Assembly (NCBI GenBank): GCA_003598085.1
Contig: QZKU01000026.1
Span: 7,335-71,334 of the forward strand
Source: Candidatus Abyssobacteria bacterium SURF_5
GTDB lineage: Bacteria > Abyssobacteria > SURF-5
Reading direction: 5' to 3'
Length of the DNA: 64,000 nt
Below are positions 17,622-28,380 of this stretch, piece by piece. The notes beneath the pieces were generated by a model. That model worked only from the letters and a program-made list of their open reading frames with translations, was not told the DNA's origin and made no database searches. Numbering within the stretch: the first letter of the stretch is position 1; every line of letters starts with the position of its first letter. The position numbers and the translations under genes are program-made.

Positions 17622-18443
17622 TCAGCTTGAACGAGAAAAATCCGGTAACGAGCATCCGTTCTTGATGTAATTCACCGCATTCCGAAATACCGCCACGCCC
17701 ATTCCCTCGCGCGGGGTTTTTTCGCGGGTCCAGCGTGGATGATTGGTCTGAAAAAGGTACGCCTCCGGATGAGGCATCAGGCCGAAAATCCGGCCCGTCA
17801 AATCGCAGATGCCCGCAATGCCGTCTTGCGAGCCGTTGGGATTGTACGGGTATCCGTCTGCTTTCCCCTCTTCATCCACATATTGAAGCACGACGTGTCC
17901 GCCCGCGTGCAGCCGTTCGAGCACGGTTTCACTCGAAGTAACGAGCTTGCCCTCGCCATGACGGACGGGCAGGTACATTCTATCAATCCCTTTTGTGAAA
18001 ATGCAACGCGAATTCGGGTTCGCCGCCAGATAGACCCAGCGGTCTTCAAACTTGCTCGAATCGTTAAACGTCAGCGTCACCTGCTGATCGCCGTATTTCC
18101 GGTCGAGCGCCGGCAAGAATCCCATCTTGACAAGAACCTGGAAACCGTTGCAGATGCCGATGATCAATTTTCCGTCTTCAATAAAACGGAGCAACTGATC
18201 CCGCAGATGCTGTATCAGCTTGTTGGCGAGCACCTTGCCCGCGGCGATATCATCTCCGTATGAGAATCCGCCGGGAATCGCGAGAATGTCATAATCGCTT
18301 AATGATTTCCCGCCCGGCTCGATCAGGTCGTTCACGTGCACCCGCTCGGCGCGACCGCCGACCCGACGCATGTTAAAGGCATACTCGGTCTCATAATCGC
18401 AGTTGATGCCGTAGCCGGTAAGCACTAATACGCTTGGTTTCAT
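17622..18443 (-). CDS. purQ: Phosphoribosylformylglycinamidine synthase, glutaminase subunit
   Basis: Class-I glutamine amidotransferase with GICNGFQ (catalytic Cys) and HPE near the C-terminus; 273 aa. Confidence 0.85.
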   Translation of the reverse strand: MKPSVLVLTGYGINCDYETEYAFNMRRVGGRAERVHVNDLIEPGGKSLSDYDILAIPGGFSYGDDIAAGKVLANKLIQHLRDQLLRFIEDGKLIIGICNGFQVLVKMGFLPALDRKYGDQQVTLTFNDSSKFEDRWVYLAANPNSRCIFTKGIDRMYLPVRHGEGKLVTSSETVLERLHAGGHVVLQYVDEEGKADGYPYNPNGSQDGIAGICDLTGRIFGLMPHPEAYLFQTNHPRWTREKTPREGMGVAVFRNAVNYIKNGCSLPDFSRSS

Positions 18444-18478
18444 AATTCTAATTCAAAGATTTGATATAACCTTGAAAG

Positions 18479-20215
18479 CTAACTCTTAATAAATCTTTTG
18501 TAAAAGACCCAAGTGTTGTGAAAACCTCTCCGTTTATTACGATTTGCGCCTCTGAAAATGACAACATTGATTCCAATTTTTCGGCAGATAGGGCAATTAC
18601 ATCTTTCCCAAGGCTTCTCAGATAGAAGTTTTTCATATTTTTCAGCAAAATGATTGTCTTCACTTTGACGTTCTAACAAAGGTCCGTATCTATTTAATGC
18701 AATAAGAGTTTCTTCTGCTCCTTTTGGATTGTCTCCAAAAACACCCAAGGAGCGAAGACAATTTTCTTCAAGTATACGAGCTTTCTCTTTGGAAAGTTTC
18801 TTATCTGCTACGGCTTCCTGTATCGCTTTGGAATCACTAAACGGTACCCGAACGGCCGCATACCATGTTCCGTCAACCGCCAAATAATTTTGATCCGATC
18901 TTAGCCAAGCCTTCCGAAAATATGAGGCAGAATCAAAGCTAGATACTCCCAATGTGCGAAAAAATGGTTGTAGCTTGGGCCGAAGGATCCCAAATAGATG
19001 CAGCCATAAGTTTTCTTCGTGCCCTCTTGTTCGCTCTTGCAGAGCTTTCCTGACTGCGCCCACAATCTCGATTATTTCTGAATCAGAGCGTGGTACTAAT
19101 CCACCCAAAGCTATATGCCGATATCCCATATCTATGTACTGATGCAAGCAGGATATATAGGAGCGGACACCAACGCCCTGAATGACGCCCATAGGTATAA
19201 AAGAATAGTTCTTTTTCTTCCATAGTCCAATGAATTCAGCAGCGTTTTCTGTTGTCAGTTTTACTCTTTCGTACCTGGCAGATAGACTCAATATGCGCTT
19301 ACGTGAACTTCCATCTTTATGTTTTTTTACTATTTCTTGCAATGGTATATGGTCTACTGACGCGCCTATATCAAAGCCGTATTTGTGGTACATATCTAAA
19401 GCTTCCATTGTGGAAAAAGGAGGTTTACTCTCCGCTGTATATGAAAATGCCCCACAATCTCCAAACAGAAGCATGTTATCCGGGAGTTGTAGCACCTCTC
19501 TGAGGTTTCCAGATGAGCACCTCCCCTTGGCCATTCTATAAATTGCACCTTTACCCATATTCATGTGAGATAAACTTAAAAGCACGCCATCATAAGGGGC
19601 ATCTTTGCCGTATATTTCATGGGCGTATGCTTTACGAGACTCACCAGCCTTTATGGGTTCTTTGCCTTCGTCTGGAATAAATGGCTCATCAACGTAATCG
19701 TCCCAATCAGGAAAAAAATAAATATATGAGCGGATGCTTTTACCTTTTTTTTCGATAGATGCTGTCTTAGATGGCAGTTTTTCAAGCCATGATTTCATGG
19801 CTTTCATTTTCATGCCGATGGGTCCTTTTGCGTAAGTAAACTTCGCTTTTGGGAAGATTTTCTCAATCCCCCTGACCGCATTAAGATAATCTGCACCTAA
19901 ATTCAGGAATATACCCTCCGGCTGTGATAGCTTTTGAAGCGCTGATAGGACCCTTTTGTTAAATGATGTGGCAGAATGCGAGTCAAAACGCTGGTCGTAT
20001 TGACTTATTATAGTTGTAGCATCGATCAATCCATATTTGGCTGAGAGAATCTTAATCTGTAATCCCGGAGGCCAGCCTTTAACGAGAAGCATTTTTCTTA
20101 GAACTCGAAAGTTAACTCCATCATACAAGCACATGGCCGGAGCTTTTATTACCTGCGGTAATTTAGTTTTTGAACAGGCCACTATCAATAAGTGACCTTC
20201 GAGGTGAGTTGTCAT
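18479..20215 (-). CDS. TGT-family (queuine/archaeosine tRNA-ribosyltransferase-like, DpdA-like) base-exchange enzyme with a roughly 230 aa N-terminal domain of unknown function
   Basis: The C-terminal approx. 350 aa carry the TGT hallmarks. LFGDCGAFSY aligns to the TGT Asp-nucleophile loop (DSGGFQ). GVSSFDSASYF aligns to the second catalytic Asp loop (GxDMFDCV). The C-terminal zinc site CNCPICx22H matches TGT CxCxxC...H. The protein is Lys-rich, AT-rich codon usage; 578 aa. Confidence 0.72.
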   Translation of the reverse strand: MTTHLEGHLLIVACSKTKLPQVIKAPAMCLYDGVNFRVLRKMLLVKGWPPGLQIKILSAKYGLIDATTIISQYDQRFDSHSATSFNKRVLSALQKLSQPEGIFLNLGADYLNAVRGIEKIFPKAKFTYAKGPIGMKMKAMKSWLEKLPSKTASIEKKGKSIRSYIYFFPDWDDYVDEPFIPDEGKEPIKAGESRKAYAHEIYGKDAPYDGVLLSLSHMNMGKGAIYRMAKGRCSSGNLREVLQLPDNMLLFGDCGAFSYTAESKPPFSTMEALDMYHKYGFDIGASVDHIPLQEIVKKHKDGSSRKRILSLSARYERVKLTTENAAEFIGLWKKKNYSFIPMGVIQGVGVRSYISCLHQYIDMGYRHIALGGLVPRSDSEIIEIVGAVRKALQERTRGHEENLWLHLFGILRPKLQPFFRTLGVSSFDSASYFRKAWLRSDQNYLAVDGTWYAAVRVPFSDSKAIQEAVADKKLSKEKARILEENCLRSLGVFGDNPKGAEETLIALNRYGPLLERQSEDNHFAEKYEKLLSEKPWERCNCPICRKIGINVVIFRGANRNKRRGFHNTWVFYKRFIKS

Positions 20216-21033
20216 TTTTTGTAAATGAATTTGCGCTTGTAATTGTTGGTTAAGTTAAATTGATTATTCGCTAAAATTAAATGTGGAAGTTCCTCAAAGG
20301 ATGATATTGTAAAATGTGGACAAATATCCCTTACCGCCGGCATCCAAAATGGCTGAAAGCCACCAGCGAAATAGATAGTGTAGAATCCAGCTTCCTTAGC
20401 AGGCGCTATATCTCGATCAAGCTGGTCTCCGACCATGTAATTTGACTGAGATGCAACATCAAATTCTGCAAGGATCTCTTGATATATCCTCACTTCTTTC
20501 CTTGCAACTAGGATTTTGTGGATGTAATTAGAAAGCTCATACTTATTCAGTAATAATTTGCACTTATCCCGGTTACCTTCCGTTAGGATAACCAGAAGCC
20601 CACCTCGCTGGTGTAATTTCTTTACGCCCTGACGCACCCCAATCCGTAATGGCGGAATTTCCGATTTCAGTTTTTTAATGAACAGCATCTCCATTTCGTT
20701 AATAAAATCTCGGCCCAGCACATCTGTTCCTGTTCTTACTGCTTCTCTCACCGACACGAGGGGAGAATGTCCCGTCAGAGCTAGGGCTAGGGCATTTATT
20801 AGCAATCGCGCAGGATATTCCAAATTATAATTATGCAGTCGCGCTAAATTTTGATCCATCCTTCTCAGAAACGAAAGCTTATCATCCGAGGGAGCAGTAA
20901 CCTTCAAATGCTTTTCGATCTCGGAAAGCAAAATCAATTGGCTTTTCGCATACACCAAATCAGTATCCCATAATGTATTATCTGCATCCAAGACCACTAG
21001 CACTTCTCGGTTCCTTTTAGATTTTGCCTTCAT
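20212..21033 (-). CDS. HAD-superfamily hydrolase/phosphatase. The track ORF extends to 21129; the start is placed at Met MKAKSKRN to avoid overlap with the upstream gene
   Basis: HAD motif I VVLDADNTLWDTD (DxDxT), motif II ILTEGN, conserved Lys, and motif IV GDQLDRD; 4-nt overlap with the TGT-like gene. Confidence 0.72.
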   Translation of the reverse strand: MKAKSKRNREVLVVLDADNTLWDTDLVYAKSQLILLSEIEKHLKVTAPSDDKLSFLRRMDQNLARLHNYNLEYPARLLINALALALTGHSPLVSVREAVRTGTDVLGRDFINEMEMLFIKKLKSEIPPLRIGVRQGVKKLHQRGGLLVILTEGNRDKCKLLLNKYELSNYIHKILVARKEVRIYQEILAEFDVASQSNYMVGDQLDRDIAPAKEAGFYTIYFAGGFQPFWMPAVRDICPHFTISSFEELPHLILANNQFNLTNNYKRKFIYKK

Positions 21034-21053
21034 ATGAACCCTACTTGAAAAAG

Positions 21054-21746
21054 CTACAATGTCTCTGGGAAAACAAACATCAATCCACAAATGACTATCC
21101 ACAAAACAAAAACGATTGTACTTAGCCACAACATAAAAACCCCCAGTTGAAGGGTTTGCAGCTTAATTCGAATTTTATAAGCTATTAAATAAGCCTCATG
21201 AATGTAATGCTTTATATACAGCAATTGAAGTTGATTACTGCAATTGTCGCAAAATGCTGCTGCCCAACCTCTGGGGGTAGCCTCAATTATCTTTGGAAAG
21301 AACAGGAAGGAGGCTGGATTTTTCAAGTCTGCACTTTTCGGAGGTGAACCTTTCGACCAATCATGAGGTACGTTAAATCGTGGTCTAACTGACCAAATTA
21401 TGAAAGAAGCTCCTGAAACTACCAACAGACAGAAGAGACCGAATACGGAATAGAAAAGCCACAATGTCCAACTCCACATTTGATAATTCATCAATGACCC
21501 ATTGTCGTCTTTGGGAAGAAGAGCCACAAAAATTGCTCCTGCGAGAGCGCTTAAGAACGCGGTTGCTGTCAATATCCGGTTGGCCTTTTCGTCTTCATAT
21601 TCCGTAAGGTGCTTTACCTCCTCGAAAGAGGTTTTCGCAAAACTTAGCAGAGCACCAAGGTCTTCTCTTGCAGGATCAAGATTCTTCAGTTCTGAAAATA
21701 TGGGCTCTGAAATCTTCCGGCTTTCAGAAGGGCTAGCCTTAGCCAT
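21054..21746 (-). CDS. Small integral membrane protein (about 60 aa cytoplasmic N-terminus plus 3 predicted TM helices), a candidate membrane effector of the island
   Basis: Hydrophobic segments ILTATAFLSALAGAIFVALL, WTLWLFYSVFGLFCLLVVSGASFIIW and LGVFMLWLSTIVFVLWIVICGLMFVF; no enzymatic motif; AT-rich. Confidence 0.5.
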   Translation of the reverse strand: MAKASPSESRKISEPIFSELKNLDPAREDLGALLSFAKTSFEEVKHLTEYEDEKANRILTATAFLSALAGAIFVALLPKDDNGSLMNYQMWSWTLWLFYSVFGLFCLLVVSGASFIIWSVRPRFNVPHDWSKGSPPKSADLKNPASFLFFPKIIEATPRGWAAAFCDNCSNQLQLLYIKHYIHEAYLIAYKIRIKLQTLQLGVFMLWLSTIVFVLWIVICGLMFVFPETL

Positions 21747-21791
21747 TGATCTCTTTGTCCCTCCCTTGTCTTCCGTTATTCCTTCTCATTA

Positions 21792-22976
21792 TTATGGGAC
21801 TGTTGGCTTGGATTGCTTTTGAGCAGGACAAAAATTCTTGAAATCACATGCTGTGCAGGTTCTAATATTCTGATTAGTCTTCCAGCATTTTCTGATAGCT
21901 ACTCCAGCAATTTCTGCAAGCACGGAAGCCTCAATTTCTTCAACAGTTTGATCAAATCTGGATAAACTAGCTCCTATCGCACTTTTATTCACGGGAATAA
22001 TTCTTATTGAGCGATTTTCTTTGAACGTCCTAGAAAGACTAGGTAAATTGCTGCGTCGGTTCCAGCGTTGGATATTTTCTAGGTCCTTGCCTGTTGCCAT
22101 TATATCAGTTTGGCCTTGGTTGATATCGTTCTTAAGTGCTAGCATATCTTCAATTGATAAAGCTAATTCATTTATATATATGAGTATACCCGCTATTATT
22201 TGCTTTGCGCCCACCTGTTGTGATCGTAGCCAGGAATAGGTGAGAATCTGCCATTCGTGATGTTTCCACGTTTCGTCAACAAAAGAAGGGCGGCGCATGC
22301 CTTTGTAATCGACAATGATTTCATATTCATCAAGGGAAGAAACTTTGAAGTAATGCTGAACATCTGAATGCTGATTCAAATAATGCAGAAGCAGACTTCC
22401 AGATGGAGCATTTACAATGCTAACAGAGCTTATGACATCAATAACGCCCTTCATTCCATAATAATTTGATCTGCTAAGATTGGGATGATAACTTGGCATG
22501 TCTCGACTGCACTTCAATTTCACTTCTGCCTCGGCAATTATTGGAAACAGATGCATTCCCCATGTGTTTATGGCCATTTCTGCTCGCTGGCTAGCAATAA
22601 GTTTATGTGGATGATTGGCGTCGGGACAAAACCCTGGTGTCGTTGCAGAAGAATCAAATGGACAAAAAAGATTTGGCGGAGGTGGAAGACCTCTCGCGAT
22701 CAATCTATCATTAATTTGCGCTTCGACATTACGGATGTCTGATTCCCATAGCCACGGAAATCTTCTCTTTTTTGGCTCGTCACGCCATTCACGATACGCC
22801 TCTTCCATCAATCCATGGATAAATTCACCAAACCACAACTGAACCGGAGTCGATGGTGGGAGGGACCCTTTATTGTAATATCTATACTGAAGGCCGCATG
22901 TTAAGAATGCCAACAAGTCACCCGTCAAGCTGTATTCAGGAATACTATACGGTTTTGGTCGTACAGAAAGAAACAT
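21792..22976 (-). CDS. Cas4/RecB-like PD-(D/E)xK nuclease with a 4Fe-4S cluster cysteine set
   Basis: N-terminal C...YRYY motif (LTCGLQYRYY) typical of the Cas4/AddB nuclease domain. Core MKGVIDVI (Asp) plus IVDYKG (D-x-K). C-terminal Cys triad CTACDFKNFC. 394 aa. Confidence 0.68.
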   Translation of the reverse strand: MFLSVRPKPYSIPEYSLTGDLLAFLTCGLQYRYYNKGSLPPSTPVQLWFGEFIHGLMEEAYREWRDEPKKRRFPWLWESDIRNVEAQINDRLIARGLPPPPNLFCPFDSSATTPGFCPDANHPHKLIASQRAEMAINTWGMHLFPIIAEAEVKLKCSRDMPSYHPNLSRSNYYGMKGVIDVISSVSIVNAPSGSLLLHYLNQHSDVQHYFKVSSLDEYEIIVDYKGMRRPSFVDETWKHHEWQILTYSWLRSQQVGAKQIIAGILIYINELALSIEDMLALKNDINQGQTDIMATGKDLENIQRWNRRSNLPSLSRTFKENRSIRIIPVNKSAIGASLSRFDQTVEEIEASVLAEIAGVAIRKCWKTNQNIRTCTACDFKNFCPAQKQSKPTVP

Positions 22977-22982
22977 TTGCTC

Positions 22983-25331
22983 CTACCTCAAATGTGTCAG
23001 GTTTTGTAGTCCCCTGCCCCAATGCCAGGTATTACCTCTATCCCATCCGGTGCCGATATTGCGGATTCTATTTTTGACGGCATTCAGCCCAACTAGCAAG
23101 AGGACATCCTGAGCTCTACTGAAGGCAACAAAGTAATGTCTAATAAGATCGTCAAATGCTCTATCAAGGGATGAACGTGTTGACGTTCCCAAGGGAGAAA
23201 ACTGCCTCAATTCATCTTCAATCTTACATGTTTTGCCGCCATCTCTTGGGAATCTCTTAAAAGCCTGTCGCCAGTGATTTATCCTAAAATCACTTCCTAC
23301 ATCTACAATTACAAATGGGAATTCCAGTCCTTTTGCCTGATGAATTGACATGATATTAACTCTGTCGCTAGGAAGCGTATCAAGTAGGTCCTCATTGACT
23401 TCTATGGCTCCGCTGGCTAATGGAACAAAGATGTTCCAAAGCGCCTCTTTAACAAAAGCGTGCTCTAGACGGATATCGGCCTTATTTGGGTCGAATAGGA
23501 TTTCTGCTCCGAAGCTTCCAAACAAACCACTCTGATTGATGGATCTAGTTATAGCTTCAAGATAAACCAATCCTTCTATGTCGTCTTGCATGCTAGGTAT
23601 CCAAGTCACAAGCTTATAAACTAGATCATTCAGTGGGACTCTCTCCTTTTTCTGAATTCTTCTCCCCAGAGGAATTCGAGATTGCCAAGATTGAACGAAC
23701 TGTTGAAGATGTTCCTTGTTTGCGAGGTGGTTATTATTGACATAACCCATGGCATGGTCACGCCACGAGTTGAATGTGTTGGCCGCTGTCGTCGGCAGAT
23801 TTGTTAAACTCTTTTGAACGGAACTCCATGGATCAACACATTCCAGAATTAGACCACAAAGCACTTGCACTTCTGGAATTTGTTGAAGGGGACATCCGCG
23901 TGGATTAAAAACTTCAATTCGGGGCGATGCTTCATGTAGTTCAGTTCGTAGGAGAAAGGGAAGTCGCGGTCTATCAGAGTAATCAAATTCTTGCGGAGAA
24001 GAACATAACAAGGCAATATCACCGAGAGAGCCATCTTTGTTCAGCTTAATCGTAGCTGCCTGTCCTTTTTGGGGGATCCGCAGACCTTGTCCTCTCGACA
24101 CTTCTTCAATGAGTACAGCCAAATCATGAGCTAACGATCCGACGTCGTCTCTAAACATACCTAGAATTGGACATTCTTGTGGTTCTGGAATTTGCCGTAC
24201 GTGTTTAATTTTAGGTTTAGAGTTTACGCGAGCTTTCTGAAATTGCTGATCCAAGCCAATGAAGTTATTTATAAATTCTACGATAGTCGGAGTCGACCGA
24301 TAATTTAAAGAAAGATATTTTGGAACTGGTTTGAGATTTAAACATTTGGCCATTCTCTTTTCGAACGACCGAAATAATTCTACTGTTGCACCGCGAAAGC
24401 GGTAAAGCGATTGATCGTCATCTCCGACAACAGTAATGCTTCCCTTGTTAATTAAGGCAGCACGTGTCAATTCAAAGTATATCTTCTCTTGAAGTAGGTT
24501 TGTGTCCTGATATTCATCTATTAGGACGAACTTTATATTTTGAAGAAAGGAGTTTAACTTTTGGGAAAGAATTTGTTGAAAAAACTCTGCTTCTAATTTT
24601 GCAAAATCGTACAAAAGCTTCTTCTGTAATTCTTGATTATATGCAGTGATGGCATCACACGCAATTTGTGCTCCCAAATGCTGAGCCTTCCGTTGGAATG
24701 CAGAAATATCTATTTGGTCATGAAAGAAACGGTCTTTAATTTCTCTTAAAGTAGAACTTAACTCAGGAACATTTAACCCGAAGGTTCCACCTCTTAAAGA
24801 AGCAACATAATTCAGCAGATTTGGGTCCTTGTATCTGCCATTGGAAAAAAGGCCAGTCCGCATCATCAAGGCATTTGAAACAAAATCTTGGACTACGATT
24901 GGCGCAGGAGCACCAGGAGCGCGATAATTTCCTAAAGTCTCTTCAGCTATGCTGTCCAGAGTTCCTGTAATAATCCTGTTGAAATCTAGTGACTTCAACC
25001 TTGATCTTAACTTCTCGTATGATGAATCCTTTAGGAAAGCAGCACGAAGTTGGTCTCCCCATCCTAGAATCCTTGACCTAAGTTCAGCGGCAGCTTTACG
25101 GGTAAAGGTGGTAACCAATACATTCGAGGGGTCCATTTCATCAAGATATATTAACTTCAGCACTCTAAGTGTAATGACAGTTGTCTTACCACTGCCCGGT
25201 CCCGCGATAAGATAAAGCGAGGAACCTTGAGCAGCCTTAATCGCTTCATATTGGCTAAGATTTTTTTCTTTTCGTATGTCTCTCTGAATGAAGGTCAATA
25301 CGGCTTTTTCAAAATCGGGCCAACTAATCAT
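22983..25331 (-). CDS. UvrD/Rep/PcrA-like superfamily-1 DNA helicase
   Basis: Walker A AGPGSGKT, Ia VTTFTRKAAAEL, motif II VLIDEYQDTN, III VVGDDDQSLYRFRGA, IV LSLNYRSTPTIVEF and VI IHQAKGLEFPFVIV; 782 aa; 6-nt gap to the nuclease gene. Confidence 0.88.
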   Translation of the reverse strand: MISWPDFEKAVLTFIQRDIRKEKNLSQYEAIKAAQGSSLYLIAGPGSGKTTVITLRVLKLIYLDEMDPSNVLVTTFTRKAAAELRSRILGWGDQLRAAFLKDSSYEKLRSRLKSLDFNRIITGTLDSIAEETLGNYRAPGAPAPIVVQDFVSNALMMRTGLFSNGRYKDPNLLNYVASLRGGTFGLNVPELSSTLREIKDRFFHDQIDISAFQRKAQHLGAQIACDAITAYNQELQKKLLYDFAKLEAEFFQQILSQKLNSFLQNIKFVLIDEYQDTNLLQEKIYFELTRAALINKGSITVVGDDDQSLYRFRGATVELFRSFEKRMAKCLNLKPVPKYLSLNYRSTPTIVEFINNFIGLDQQFQKARVNSKPKIKHVRQIPEPQECPILGMFRDDVGSLAHDLAVLIEEVSRGQGLRIPQKGQAATIKLNKDGSLGDIALLCSSPQEFDYSDRPRLPFLLRTELHEASPRIEVFNPRGCPLQQIPEVQVLCGLILECVDPWSSVQKSLTNLPTTAANTFNSWRDHAMGYVNNNHLANKEHLQQFVQSWQSRIPLGRRIQKKERVPLNDLVYKLVTWIPSMQDDIEGLVYLEAITRSINQSGLFGSFGAEILFDPNKADIRLEHAFVKEALWNIFVPLASGAIEVNEDLLDTLPSDRVNIMSIHQAKGLEFPFVIVDVGSDFRINHWRQAFKRFPRDGGKTCKIEDELRQFSPLGTSTRSSLDRAFDDLIRHYFVAFSRAQDVLLLVGLNAVKNRIRNIGTGWDRGNTWHWGRGLQNLTHLR

Positions 25332-25350
25332 AGATGCACTTTTTACAACC

Positions 25351-28300
25351 TCACCAGTTCAGCGGCTGCTGCCATGCCCGCTTCAATTGGAATATATCGG
25401 CTGAAAGGATCTTTTGTCTGCCATTTTTCAAGACCAGGAGTGGAGATCGTGTTACTTTTCCCGCTCTGGCAAATGGGACTCCATCCATCATTTGTTCAAA
25501 CTCTTTCGCTTTTCGAGGAGGAACAGTTATCACGAACCGGCTCTGGGACTCGGAGAATAGCAGGTAATCGGCGCGCAGAGGTTCAGGCTGCGGAACGGCG
25601 GACAGATCGGCCGTGATGCCGAATCCGCCGGCAAAGGCGCTTTCCGCAAGCGCGACTCCGAGACCGCCGTCGGAGCAGTCGTGGCACGAGGCGATCAGGC
25701 GGCGATCGATCGCATCCGATACTCTTGAATAAATCTGTCTTGCAAGCTGAGAATTCACCCGCGGTACTGAATTCCCGATGAACCCGTGGTGCGCGAAGTA
25801 TTCGCTGCCGCCCAGTTCATTCTTCGTCACGCCGACCACGTATACGAGGTGGCTTGGCCGCTTCACGTCCATCGAAACGACTTTGCGCACGTCCTCGATC
25901 CGCCCGAGCACCGAGAACAGGAGCGTGGGCGGCACCGATATCTTGATGTCGCCGATCATGTAATCGTTCTTCATGCTGTCCTTGCCCGAGATGCAGGGAA
26001 CATCGTACGCCGTACAATAGTCGTAAAGCGCCATGTTCGAACGGACAAGCTGCGCGAGTTTGTAGTACCCGTCGGGCGTCTTCTCCGATTGCACAGGATC
26101 GGGCCAGCAGAAGTTGTCGAGTCCGGCCAGATACCCAAGCCGGCCGCCGACAGAAATCGCATTTCTCACCGCCTCGTCGATAGCGCAGGCGGTCATGTGA
26201 TATGTGTCGAGGTCGCTGTAGCGCGGGCAGATGCCGCTCGCAACGACCACGCCTTCATATGAATCATACAGAGGCTTCAGGACGGCTGCATCGCCGGGCC
26301 CGTCATTGGAGCTGCCGATAAACGGCTTGAGCGCGCTCAAGCCCTGGACCTCATGATCGTATTGCCGTACAAACGACTCTTTGCTGCACACGTTCAGCCG
26401 CGCCAGCATCTGCTCCAGCAAACGGTTGTAGTCCTGCGGCTCGGGAAGGTCCGGCTCTTCGTGCTTCGGCGCCTTCCAGCGCGCCTGCAAATTCATTCTC
26501 GGCACGCCCTCATGCAGGAAATCCATGTCGAGGTGAGCAACCACCTTACTTTCGTACAGAACCTCAAATTTGCCGGAATCGGCAAATGTTCCAAGCACCG
26601 TCGCTTCGACGTCGCGCCTCCTGGCCAGTTCGAGAAAGCGATCGATCTTTTCGGGATCAACCGCGAGCGTCATTCGCTCCTGCGCTTCCGATAGCAGGAT
26701 TTCCCACGGCTGCAGGCCCTTATATTTCAAGGGCGCCTTCTCAAGTTCGATCCGGCATCCGTTGGAGAAGCGCGCCATTTCGCCGACCGACGACGAAAGG
26801 CCGCCGGCGCCGTTGTCCGTGATCGCGCGGTACAATCCCAGATCGCGGGCCTCAAGCAGGAAATCGGTCATCTTCTTCTGCGTGATCGCGTCGCCGATCT
26901 GAACCGCCGACGTCGGCGACTCGCTGTGAAGTTCTTCGGATGAAAAGGTGGCGCCGTGAATGCCGTCCTTGCCGATCCGACCGCCGGTCATCACGATCAG
27001 GTCGCCCGGCAAAGCGGTCTTTTCATGCGCCGGCTCGCCGAGTATCTCCTTCGGCATGAGCCCGCCTGTCCCGCAGAACACGAGCGGCTTGCCCGCGTAA
27101 CGGTCGTCAAAGAGGATGCTGCCGTTGACATCCGGAATCCCGCTCTGGTTTGCGCCGTCGCGCACGCCACGGTGCACGCCCTTGAAGATGCGCTTCGGAT
27201 GGAGCAGGCGGGGCGGGAGAGGCTTGTCATAATCCGGTGGAGCGAAACAGAACGTGTCCACATTGAAAATCAGACGACACCCCTTGCCGGTGCCGAAAGG
27301 ATCACGGTTGACGCCGACGATGCCGGTTACCGCGCCGCCGTATGGATCGAGAGCTGACGGGCTGTTGTGCGTTTCCACCTTCATGACCAGGTTCCACCTG
27401 TCATTGAAGCGGATGACTCCGGCATTGTCGTGGAAAACCGATACCAGCCACGGAACCCGCTTGGAAATCTCGTCGGTCGAACGTCTGATATACGTCTTGA
27501 ACAGGCCGTTGATTTGGCGCCGGCCCTGTTCGTCCTCATAATCGATGAAGGCGTTGAATATCTTGTGCTTGCAATGTTCCGACCACGTCTGCGCAATGCA
27601 TTCCAGTTCGACGTCTGTCGGCTGATTCGAAAGTCCGTACCTGCTGCGATCGCGAATCGCGTTTTCGCTGCGAAAATAATTGCGGATCACCCGCATCTCA
27701 TCGAGACTGAGCGAAAGGATCCCCTCGCGGCTGATGCGTATCAGCTCCTGGTCGGACACAGCAAGATCGAAAGCCTTGACATGGACTGGCTGCGGTGTCC
27801 CTGCCAACGGAAGCGGGAGTGAGATGCCGCCGGAACGGCGGAATTCATCGGCGTCGGCGATGCGCCACTGTTCGATCAGGCCGTTGGCCAGCAGCCCGCC
27901 GGCGATTCTCTCAACCTGAGCCCGCTCCAGGCGGCCCCGCAAAACATATTGTTTGGCGGTGAAGACGGTGCTCCCGTCCGCGCGCTCTCCAAAGATATCG
28001 ATCATCGCCTCGCGCGAAGTCTTGCCTACATTATCGGTGACTCCGGGTTTGAAGCCGATTTCGATGACCCACGAGAAATCAGAGGCCAGAGGCTGGTCGA
28101 GCGTGGACACATCGATGACGGGATCGGCGAACAGGTGCGTGCGAAGCATGTCGGCGTCGTCGCATCTCAGGCTGGTCAACAGCGTGTATACCCGTATTAG
28201 CCGCGCGTCGTCGACGGCGATATGCAGGTCTTCCACGATATTTTTTCGAATGGCGTCGCCCGCGGCATCGAATTGATCGCGCCGCAGCCCGACTTCTATT

Positions 28301-28380
28301 CTGTAGGTATTAAGATCAATCACGGTTACCGCCGGTACTTTACCTTCCCTGTCCCCGAAACTATTCGCCCGATAGTCCAA
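25351..28380 (-). CDS. purL: Phosphoribosylformylglycinamidine synthase subunit PurL with N-terminal PurS-like domain(s) fused. The annotated start is TTG; an alternative GTG at 28323 sits 2 nt after the purM stop
   Basis: AIR-synthase-related domains (SFGDREG..., PurM-like repeats) with an N-terminus resembling PurS (KPGVTDNVGKTSREAMIDI); 1009 aa. Confidence 0.85.
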   Translation of the reverse strand: MDYRANSFGDREGKVPAVTVIDLNTYRIEVGLRRDQFDAAGDAIRKNIVEDLHIAVDDARLIRVYTLLTSLRCDDADMLRTHLFADPVIDVSTLDQPLASDFSWVIEIGFKPGVTDNVGKTSREAMIDIFGERADGSTVFTAKQYVLRGRLERAQVERIAGGLLANGLIEQWRIADADEFRRSGGISLPLPLAGTPQPVHVKAFDLAVSDQELIRISREGILSLSLDEMRVIRNYFRSENAIRDRSRYGLSNQPTDVELECIAQTWSEHCKHKIFNAFIDYEDEQGRRQINGLFKTYIRRSTDEISKRVPWLVSVFHDNAGVIRFNDRWNLVMKVETHNSPSALDPYGGAVTGIVGVNRDPFGTGKGCRLIFNVDTFCFAPPDYDKPLPPRLLHPKRIFKGVHRGVRDGANQSGIPDVNGSILFDDRYAGKPLVFCGTGGLMPKEILGEPAHEKTALPGDLIVMTGGRIGKDGIHGATFSSEELHSESPTSAVQIGDAITQKKMTDFLLEARDLGLYRAITDNGAGGLSSSVGEMARFSNGCRIELEKAPLKYKGLQPWEILLSEAQERMTLAVDPEKIDRFLELARRRDVEATVLGTFADSGKFEVLYESKVVAHLDMDFLHEGVPRMNLQARWKAPKHEEPDLPEPQDYNRLLEQMLARLNVCSKESFVRQYDHEVQGLSALKPFIGSSNDGPGDAAVLKPLYDSYEGVVVASGICPRYSDLDTYHMTACAIDEAVRNAISVGGRLGYLAGLDNFCWPDPVQSEKTPDGYYKLAQLVRSNMALYDYCTAYDVPCISGKDSMKNDYMIGDIKISVPPTLLFSVLGRIEDVRKVVSMDVKRPSHLVYVVGVTKNELGGSEYFAHHGFIGNSVPRVNSQLARQIYSRVSDAIDRRLIASCHDCSDGGLGVALAESAFAGGFGITADLSAVPQPEPLRADYLLFSESQSRFVITVPPRKAKEFEQMMDGVPFARAGKVTRSPLLVLKNGRQKILSADIFQLKRAWQQPLNW

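Follow-up and report, generated by a model that had tools for sequence, protein, structure and literature searches.

A UvrD-like helicase and a Cas4/AddB-type nuclease as the candidate restriction arm of a compact Dpd-like system

What is the function of a helicase gene and a nuclease gene that lie side by side on a foreign island inside a pur operon? This question is raised by a 64,000-nucleotide stretch of Candidatus Abyssobacteria bacterium SURF_5 (contig QZKU01000026.1; hereafter the 64-kb window), the minus strand of which encodes a 782-amino-acid UvrD-like helicase of superfamily 1A (SF1A), designated HEL (22983..25331), followed by a 394-amino-acid PD-(D/E)xK nuclease of the Cas4/AddB type, designated NUC (21792..22976). 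With moderate confidence, we propose that HEL-NUC acts as the ATP-driven module for restriction/degradation in a compact, Dpd-like 7-deazaguanine system, i.e. a system built around DpdA, the DNA-guanine transglycosylase by which preQ0 enters DNA. This proposal is supported by the intact catalytic motifs of HEL, NUC and DpdA; by the strict linkage of HEL to NUC; by their linkage to DpdA in the clade of the window and two further lineages, often together with queC/D/E or a YhhQ-type transporter; by defence-type neighbours; and by the near absence of the pair from viruses. To our knowledge, Dpd is the largest and the least understood restriction-modification system, notably as to how its eight restriction proteins read 7-deazaguanine. 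A minimal natural version, comprising one DpdA-containing protein, one SF1 helicase and one putative iron-sulfur (Fe-S) nuclease, would be a much more tractable route to Dpd recognition.

HEL matches both the Pfam UvrD-helicase model (E=2e-45, 156 bits for a cut-off of 23) and UvrD_C, and its nearest solved relatives in a PDB sequence search are UvrD1, PcrA, UvrD and AddA. The complete set of motifs of the UvrD/Rep/PcrA-like SF1A enzymes (Q, I, Ia, II, III, IV, V and VI) is present, as Q27, AGPGSGKTTV 43-52 (with the Walker A lysine K49), TTFTrKAA 74-81, DEYQD 272-276, VGDDDQSLYRFRGAT 302-316, NYRS 343-346, HQxKGLEFP 664-672 and SR 738-739 (with the motif VI arginine). In an alignment of 77 family helicases these motifs are at least 95% conserved, including GDDDQSLYRFRGA, which lies between DEYQD and NYRS. 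On this motif content we assign HEL to the SF1A UvrD-like helicases.

NUC matches Pfam PDDEXK_1 (E=5e-10, 40 bits for a cut-off of 22). Among 26 homologues of 54-65% identity, the residues C27, D180, D223-Y-K225, Q243...Y247 and C374/C377/C383 are invariant, and they comprise the PD-(D/E)xK core and the QxxxY motif of the RecB-family/PDDEXK_1 nucleases. The one N-terminal and three C-terminal (CX2CX5C) cysteines are predicted Fe-S ligands. Judged from these residues, NUC is a PDDEXK_1/RecB-family nuclease of the Fe-S type. The original prediction had described all SF1 motifs of HEL as intact, and had read C-x4-YRY, VIDVI...DYK and CxxCx5C in NUC; both descriptions hold in the alignments, and the loss of catalytic residues that might have emerged there did not, as these residues are invariant or near-invariant among the homologues of HEL and NUC.

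A PDB sequence search with NUC returned no match at E<=1, leaving the fold comparison as the only informative one. The AlphaFold2 model (mean predicted local distance difference test score 77.9, with a C-terminal segment below 50) is closest in Foldseek to AddB, the nuclease subunit of AddAB (4ceh_B, E=5e-5, probability 1.0), then to the Cas4-family ACE1 and type I-C Cas4, followed by RecE, MGME1 and Dna2. That NUC is a CRISPR Cas4 proper was rejected: it scores 23.4 bits against TIGR00372, for which the cut-off is 65, the 64-kb window contains no CRISPR-like array, and the neighbours of NUC are pur and island genes. The NUC family also displays an additional invariant set, C105...C117...H122-P-H124, in a poorly modelled insert (residues 95-126), which may be a second metal site, and a conserved C-terminal P-T-V-P tail (residues 391-394). 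We know of neither feature from descriptions of Cas4 or AddB.

The two genes, both intact and both starting with ATG, are tightly adjacent as predicted, with 6 nucleotides between the HEL stop and the NUC start, in the same frame. Homologous loci, labelled below with an L and a number, were collected, and the tree and the linkage count cover 89 with a full-length nuclease. In 84 of these 89 loci the gene immediately upstream of the nuclease encodes a homologous helicase, and the pairing is therefore far beyond chance. From this gene order we infer that HEL and NUC work as a complex. The NUC family is discrete, with 332 matches at E<=1e-3 among 1.84 billion cluster representatives; it has more than 2,000 members in a larger collection and is present in the genomes of at least 255 GTDB species.

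In a neighbour-joining tree, the 89 nucleases fall into three clades. The first one, to which the window belongs, is taxonomically mixed (Dehalococcoidia, Methanotrichaceae, Methanoperedens, Nitrosotalea, Altiarchaeota, Theionarchaea and Methanoregula), and wherever the flanking DNA extends far enough, DpdA and/or DUF6884 adjoins HEL-NUC. The second clade, Methanobacterium and relatives, is devoid of DpdA; its pair follows Mre11-like (Metallophos) and Rad50-like (SMC) genes in five loci, and a GmrSD-family gene in three. In the third clade (Methanobrevibacter), the pair occupies a conserved chromosomal synteny beside an MrfA/YprA-like helicase. The neighbours of homologous loci include toxin-antitoxin pairs, AbiEii, HEPN/MNT, GmrSD, BREX and DISARM-like genes and HerA, a set typical of defence islands.

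In the window the proposed partner of HEL-NUC is a 578-amino-acid protein (18479..20215, minus strand), identified through NCBIfam, PADLOC and an alignment with the structure 7UI4, in which a DUF6884 (DpdC/YaaA-like) domain is fused to DpdA. The fusion protein scores 362.6 bits with the NCBIfam DpdA model NF041059 (cut-off 200) and 2.3e-102 with PADLOC DpdA, and its DpdA part aligns end to end with Salmonella enterica Montevideo DpdA (7UI4, E=1.5e-68). The aspartates D95/D130/D256 of 7UI4 correspond to D253/D288/D428 of the window protein, which has Gln (Q346) in place of H181 and retains the Zn site as C539/C541/C544/H566. The island thus encodes what is expected of a Dpd locus, a DpdA with its catalytic Asp triad and Zn site. 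The N-terminal domain matches Pfam DUF6884 (40.6 bits, cut-off 30), with the motifs C14xxxK18 and L57SAxxG62.

Relatives of HEL-NUC are tied to DpdA in three gene architectures: a split one, a DUF6884::DpdA fusion and a canonical que-dpdAB cluster. The closest metagenomic relatives of the window pair show the split architecture, DUF6884-HEL-NUC-DpdA, with junctions that overlap or span 3-12 nucleotides; in two Dehalococcoidia loci the next gene encodes a YhhQ/Vut_1 transporter, of the preQ0-transporter family. One split lineage (L086-L088) carries, between DUF6884 and the helicase, an unannotated protein of 611-621 amino acids and a HerA-like ATPase with a 2e-94 match to PADLOC's 'Type III coevolved' HerA model.

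A search with the window fusion protein uncovered a large bacterial family of DUF6884::DpdA fusions. In three sampled homologues (L092-L094), the next genes encode a UvrD helicase and a PDDEXK_1 nuclease; in a fourth one (L095, on a 5.3-kb contig), the next gene reaches the contig end and its product is 43% identical to window HEL over 481 amino acids, so that any nuclease would lie beyond the contig. Two further fusion loci were found via homologues of a PycTM-like membrane protein, which the island also encodes along with a HAD-superfamily hydrolase; their gene orders are QueD-PycTM-HAD-fusion-HEL-NUC (L096) and QueD-QueE-QueC-PycTM-HAD-fusion-HEL-NUC (L097). The third architecture is found in rhizobia. 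On the Bradyrhizobium plasmid pB41S5 (L100), a queC-queD-queE-dpdB-dpdA-dpdB operon is divergent from HEL-NUC, the helicase of which is 39% identical to window HEL over its full length, while a replicon of Rhizobium sp. WYJ-E13 (L101) reads HEL-NUC-x-DpdB-DpdA-DpdB-QueE-QueD-QueC-PycTM-HAD. By analogy, HEL-NUC would sit in pB41S5 and Rhizobium where a restriction operon is expected. Both rhizobial loci also show two diverged DpdB paralogues (about 30% identical) on either side of dpdA and, separating dpdB from HEL-NUC, the gene of a conserved 243-amino-acid protein that Pfam does not match.

Window HEL is 56-63% identical to the helicases of split cassettes (56-64% for HEL and NUC together), whereas the split DpdA is only about 40% identical to that of the window. 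Conversely, the PycTM-like, HAD and fusion proteins of the window share 39-62% identity with those of fusion-type cassettes, the HEL and NUC of which reach only 35-43%. As judged from these identities, the window is a chimera that combines the HEL-NUC of the split lineage with the modification genes of the fusion lineage; therefore, the same functional combination was rebuilt by module exchange. This exchange is the strongest comparative argument that HEL-NUC and DpdA share one pathway. The DpdA-linked module is cellular and horizontally mobile.

Since relatives of the pair are linked to DpdA in three architectures, we consider HEL-NUC as one arm of a Dpd-like system rather than a free-standing effector. 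The original prediction of a DNA-degrading effector had the direction right, but it overlooked the DpdA/DUF6884 partner in the island. In the mechanism that we propose, DUF6884::DpdA would exchange guanines of the cell's own DNA for preQ0, which may be processed further by the DUF6884 domain, and the UvrD-like motor and the putative Fe-S nuclease would unwind and degrade unmarked DNA. NUC would then presumably discriminate modified from unmodified DNA, and HEL-NUC would take the place held by the dpdD-K restriction operon in the Salmonella Dpd island.

The same DpdA linkage could also mean that the pair helps modification. HEL would open or translocate DNA for DpdA, in the role of DpdB, NUC would process or proofread the substrate, and the cassette would write 7-deazaguanine and restrict nothing. 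S. Montevideo DpdA needs the ParB-like ATPase DpdB, for which a helicase-like role has been raised by its authors, neither the window nor the split-type and fusion-type cassettes have DpdB, and a different NTPase in DpdB's stead has been proposed for other TGT-containing systems. Yet HEL-NUC is kept in the Rhizobium/Bradyrhizobium loci despite their two DpdB genes, and the presence of DpdB there argues that HEL does more than stand in for it. Furthermore, the catalytic residues of NUC are invariant, although a pure unwinding helper would not need them; the sister clades function without DpdA; and the pair is nearly absent from viruses, although phage DpdA enzymes are common. The nuclease has a single match among 2.9 million IMG/VR contigs and none among 50,697 GenBank phages. 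We thus regard a purely auxiliary role in modification as unlikely. A phage origin, or an anti-restriction function, was rejected on the same viral counts and on the lack of any IMG/VR match for the fusion protein. The only match in the viral collection (L098) is DUF6884-HEL-NUC, with no DpdA detected in the 1.1 kb that follow the nuclease; in a Theionarchaea locus (L022), DpdA follows the pair and no DUF6884 was detected upstream. Both may be degenerate or divergent cassettes.

The clades devoid of DpdA bring up another explanation, namely that HEL-NUC is a repair module for AddAB-like end resection, attached to DpdA only to mend the nicks, abasic sites or breaks of base exchange, or serving general island maintenance. 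Consistent with this view, the pair directly follows Mre11-like and Rad50-like genes in Methanobacterium and Methanomicrobiales, it sits beside the MrfA/YprA-like helicase in the Methanobrevibacter synteny, the fold of NUC is closest to AddB, and unfused operons of UvrD and Cas4-like genes have been seen as possible repair genes (Hudaiberdiev et al. 2017, PMC5704561). On the other hand, the linkage to DpdA holds strictly throughout three architectures and has outlasted module exchange, the foreign window copy stands among non-repair genes, defence and toxin-antitoxin genes are neighbours, and canonical Dpd modification runs in vitro on DpdA/B/C alone. Repair is accordingly an improbable primary role for the window pair. 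The original prediction of a DNA-degrading effector, not a housekeeping repair enzyme, agrees with what is seen in the window clade, but it does not extend to the whole family, as the methanogen sister clades lie beside Mre11/Rad50-like genes or in conserved synteny.

In these methanogens, the pair lies directly downstream of the Mre11-like/Rad50-like genes in L015, L018, L020, L024 and L026 (with L001 nearby), where many archaeal mre11-rad50 operons have HerA-NurA, and HEL-NUC may be an unrecognised end-resection machine there; the family thus offers methanogens a candidate enzyme for this step. Because sister clades adjoin Mre11/Rad50-like genes in methanogens, our data suggest an exaptation from repair to immunity. 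A GmrSD-family (DUF262) gene is immediately upstream of HEL-NUC in three archaeal loci devoid of DpdA (L004, L013 and L021), of which L004 adjoins BREX genes, and a protein with the GmrSD N-terminal domain alone precedes the DUF6884-HEL-NUC-DpdA cassette of L003 (grouped with L010).

Several observations weigh against the assignment of HEL-NUC to the restriction arm of a Dpd-like system. First, all members of the HEL-NUC family are known from sequence alone, and neither HEL nor NUC has an evident feature for reading 7-deazaguanine. Second, sister clades represented by L001, L004 and L018 (53-56% HEL/NUC identity) are devoid of DpdA and look like repair genes, and therefore HEL-NUC is not intrinsically dependent on modification. 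Third, DNA modification in this host is itself deduced from genes: the window DpdA is of the bacterial type, which depends on DpdB in Salmonella, and no island protein matches the PADLOC or NCBIfam models of DpdB, nor did tblastn with two DpdB sequences find anything in the window. Fourth, tblastn of the 64-kb window found none of queC/D/E or YhhQ. Fifth, the DUF6884 domain resembles PADLOC DpdC weakly (E=6.6e-4, compared with 1e-7 for PDC-M57A); DpdC, the hydrolase that converts preQ0-DNA to ADG-DNA, is assigned to DUF6884 in one paper and to DUF328 in others. Sixth, a simple restriction-modification model leaves over the PycTM-like and HAD genes.

A bolder form of the restriction proposal treats 7-deazaguanine as a chemical 'Chi'. 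By analogy with RecBCD/AddAB, an end-loading HEL-NUC would degrade any linear DNA, whether broken or incoming, until arrested or attenuated at dPreQ0/dADG, so that self DNA would be spared and repaired while unmarked DNA would be destroyed, in an immunity gated by base modification. End-loading is suggested by the Mre11/Rad50 linkage of the sister clades, and the model would, if true, explain the swapping of HEL-NUC and DpdA modules between lineages. We nevertheless hold this idea to be a long shot.

Canonical Dpd (dpdA-K of S. enterica Montevideo; Thiaville 2016, Gedara 2023) resembles the window in its bacterial-type DpdA with a YaaA/DpdC-like partner domain, in the ties of related loci to preQ0 genes, and in a mobile island that joins a modification module to genes of a helicase and nuclease kind. 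It differs from the window, which lacks DpdB and DpdD-K (apart from DpdA and the weak DpdC, island proteins have no PADLOC Dpd match), has one UvrD-like SF1 helicase and a Cas4/AddB-type nuclease in place of SF2/YprA helicases and a PLD nuclease, holds five genes in about 7 kb instead of about 20 kb, and adds the PycTM-like and HAD proteins.

Like AddAB, AdnAB and RecBCD, the window combines a UvrD-family motor with a RecB-family nuclease bearing the 1+3 cysteine motif, and AddB is the best structural match of NUC; where they have two motors and two nucleases, however, it has one of each. HEL is devoid of a nuclease domain, as Pfam found none, NUC with its 394 amino acids lacks the inactivated-helicase scaffold, and no Chi-recognition region could be identified in HEL-NUC. 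Membership in AddAB was rejected on domain architecture and on the NCBIfam scores of HEL (135 bits for addA, model addA_Gpos, with a cut-off of 708; 97 bits for recB, with a cut-off of 696). The 'AddAB/RecB-like logic in miniature' of the original prediction is therefore apt as an analogy, but not as a class, given that HEL has no RecB nuclease domain and NUC no dead-helicase scaffold. Gabija was rejected as well: the island proteins include no GajA OLD-family ATPase-nuclease, and the match of HEL to GajB models (about 1e-34) is limited to the generic, conserved UvrD helicase core.

Two earlier reports come close to this cassette. UvrD-Cas4 fusions and unfused operons likewise couple a pfam12705 Cas4-like nuclease to a UvrD-like helicase; the fusions, for which a role in defence was proposed, adjoin enzymes of DNA modification (Type III Mod/Res, Dcm/Vsr) (Hudaiberdiev et al. 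2017, PMC5704561). In the window, by contrast, the genes are split and the modification partner is DpdA, and a link to DpdA/TGT is absent from that paper. A Cas4-like nuclease and a DNA helicase were said to lie often beside tgt (data not shown), with an independent guess, the same as ours, that they restrict unmodified DNA (Tsai et al. 2017, PMC5567051). This tgt neighbourhood, in M. aeolicus and D. thermolithotrophum, is probably the same as our cassette, though it was mentioned in passing, with neither a family definition nor a census or experimental work, and the phage 9g nuclease grouped with it has no detectable sequence similarity to the NUC family (no phage match at E<=1e-3). Apart from the remark in PMC5567051, our literature searches turned up no definition or test of the cassette. 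HEL-NUC is best seen as the nuclease arm of a Dpd-like system that is compact, modular and widespread, and for which there was earlier only a passing remark (2017) on a TGT-helicase-Cas4-like neighbourhood; with at least three architectures, it is spread over many phyla of bacteria and archaea.

The island that carries the window cassette (18444..25350, no strand assigned; 6.9 kb, five genes) was delimited by its GC (guanine plus cytosine) profile and junction sequences. It fills exactly the gap between the purL stop (25351; purL, 25351-28380) and the purQ start (18443; purQ, 17622-18443), in the order purM-purL-[island]-purQ-purH-purD, and its GC fraction of 0.35-0.46, compared with 0.53-0.60 outside, bears out the foreign setting that had been predicted. 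Its borders show no notable flanking direct or inverted repeats and no tRNA gene, and there is no integrase among the open reading frames. All five genes point in the direction of the operon, the first one beginning 19 nucleotides past the purL stop and the last one ending 35 nucleotides before the purQ start. Owing to this position and co-orientation, transcription of the pur genes probably runs through the island, and expression of purQ would now require reading across 6.9 kb of foreign sequence. A scan for promoters and terminators was uninformative, with 14 promoter-like sites for 15 expected and terminator-like sites scattered on both strands.

Of the two island genes not yet described, one encodes a PycTM-like (DUF5706) multi-pass membrane protein of 230 amino acids (21054..21746, minus strand), which matches PADLOC PycTM at 7e-10 and Pfam PycTM at 19 bits, under the cut-off of 27. 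The other encodes a HAD-superfamily hydrolase (20212..21129, minus strand; Pfam HAD_2 3.9e-10, Hydrolase 6.5e-9), the nearest NCBIfam models of which are nucleotidase-like, below cut-off. As listed, it has 305 amino acids, a GTG start and a 76-nucleotide overlap with the upstream PycTM-like gene. Its true start is probably the ATG at 21033 (M33), because the resulting length of about 273 amino acids fits the 249-259-amino-acid homologues in L096 and L097. The cassettes of L096, L097 and L101 each include a PycTM-like homologue, which is followed by a HAD homologue (249-259 amino acids).

This recurrence suggests an abortive-infection circuit, in which HEL-NUC would sense or process invading or unmodified DNA, the PycTM-like protein would kill the cell, and the HAD hydrolase would tune a nucleotide-derived signal. 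The PycTM-like family does match Pycsar and 2TM effector models. However, there is no cyclase in the island, L096, L097 or L101, nor is another signal-generating enzyme present, split-type cassettes keep HEL-NUC-DpdA with neither PycTM nor HAD, and the window PycTM match is under the Pfam cut-off, so that we regard such a circuit as quite improbable, the least likely of the roles considered. Pycsar itself was rejected, as the PycTM-like protein is present with no PycC cyclase in the island, L096, L097 or L101.

On a plasmid of Picosynechococcus sp. PCC 73109 (L099, NZ_CP014001.1), the gene after HEL-NUC encodes an unannotated 384-amino-acid protein, and toxin genes of the PIN and AbiEii families flank the pair. 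At a distance of about 3 kb, two DEAD/DEAH (YprA-like) helicases enclose a short gene of the TGT family, and this small plasmid may carry yet another TGT-based system.

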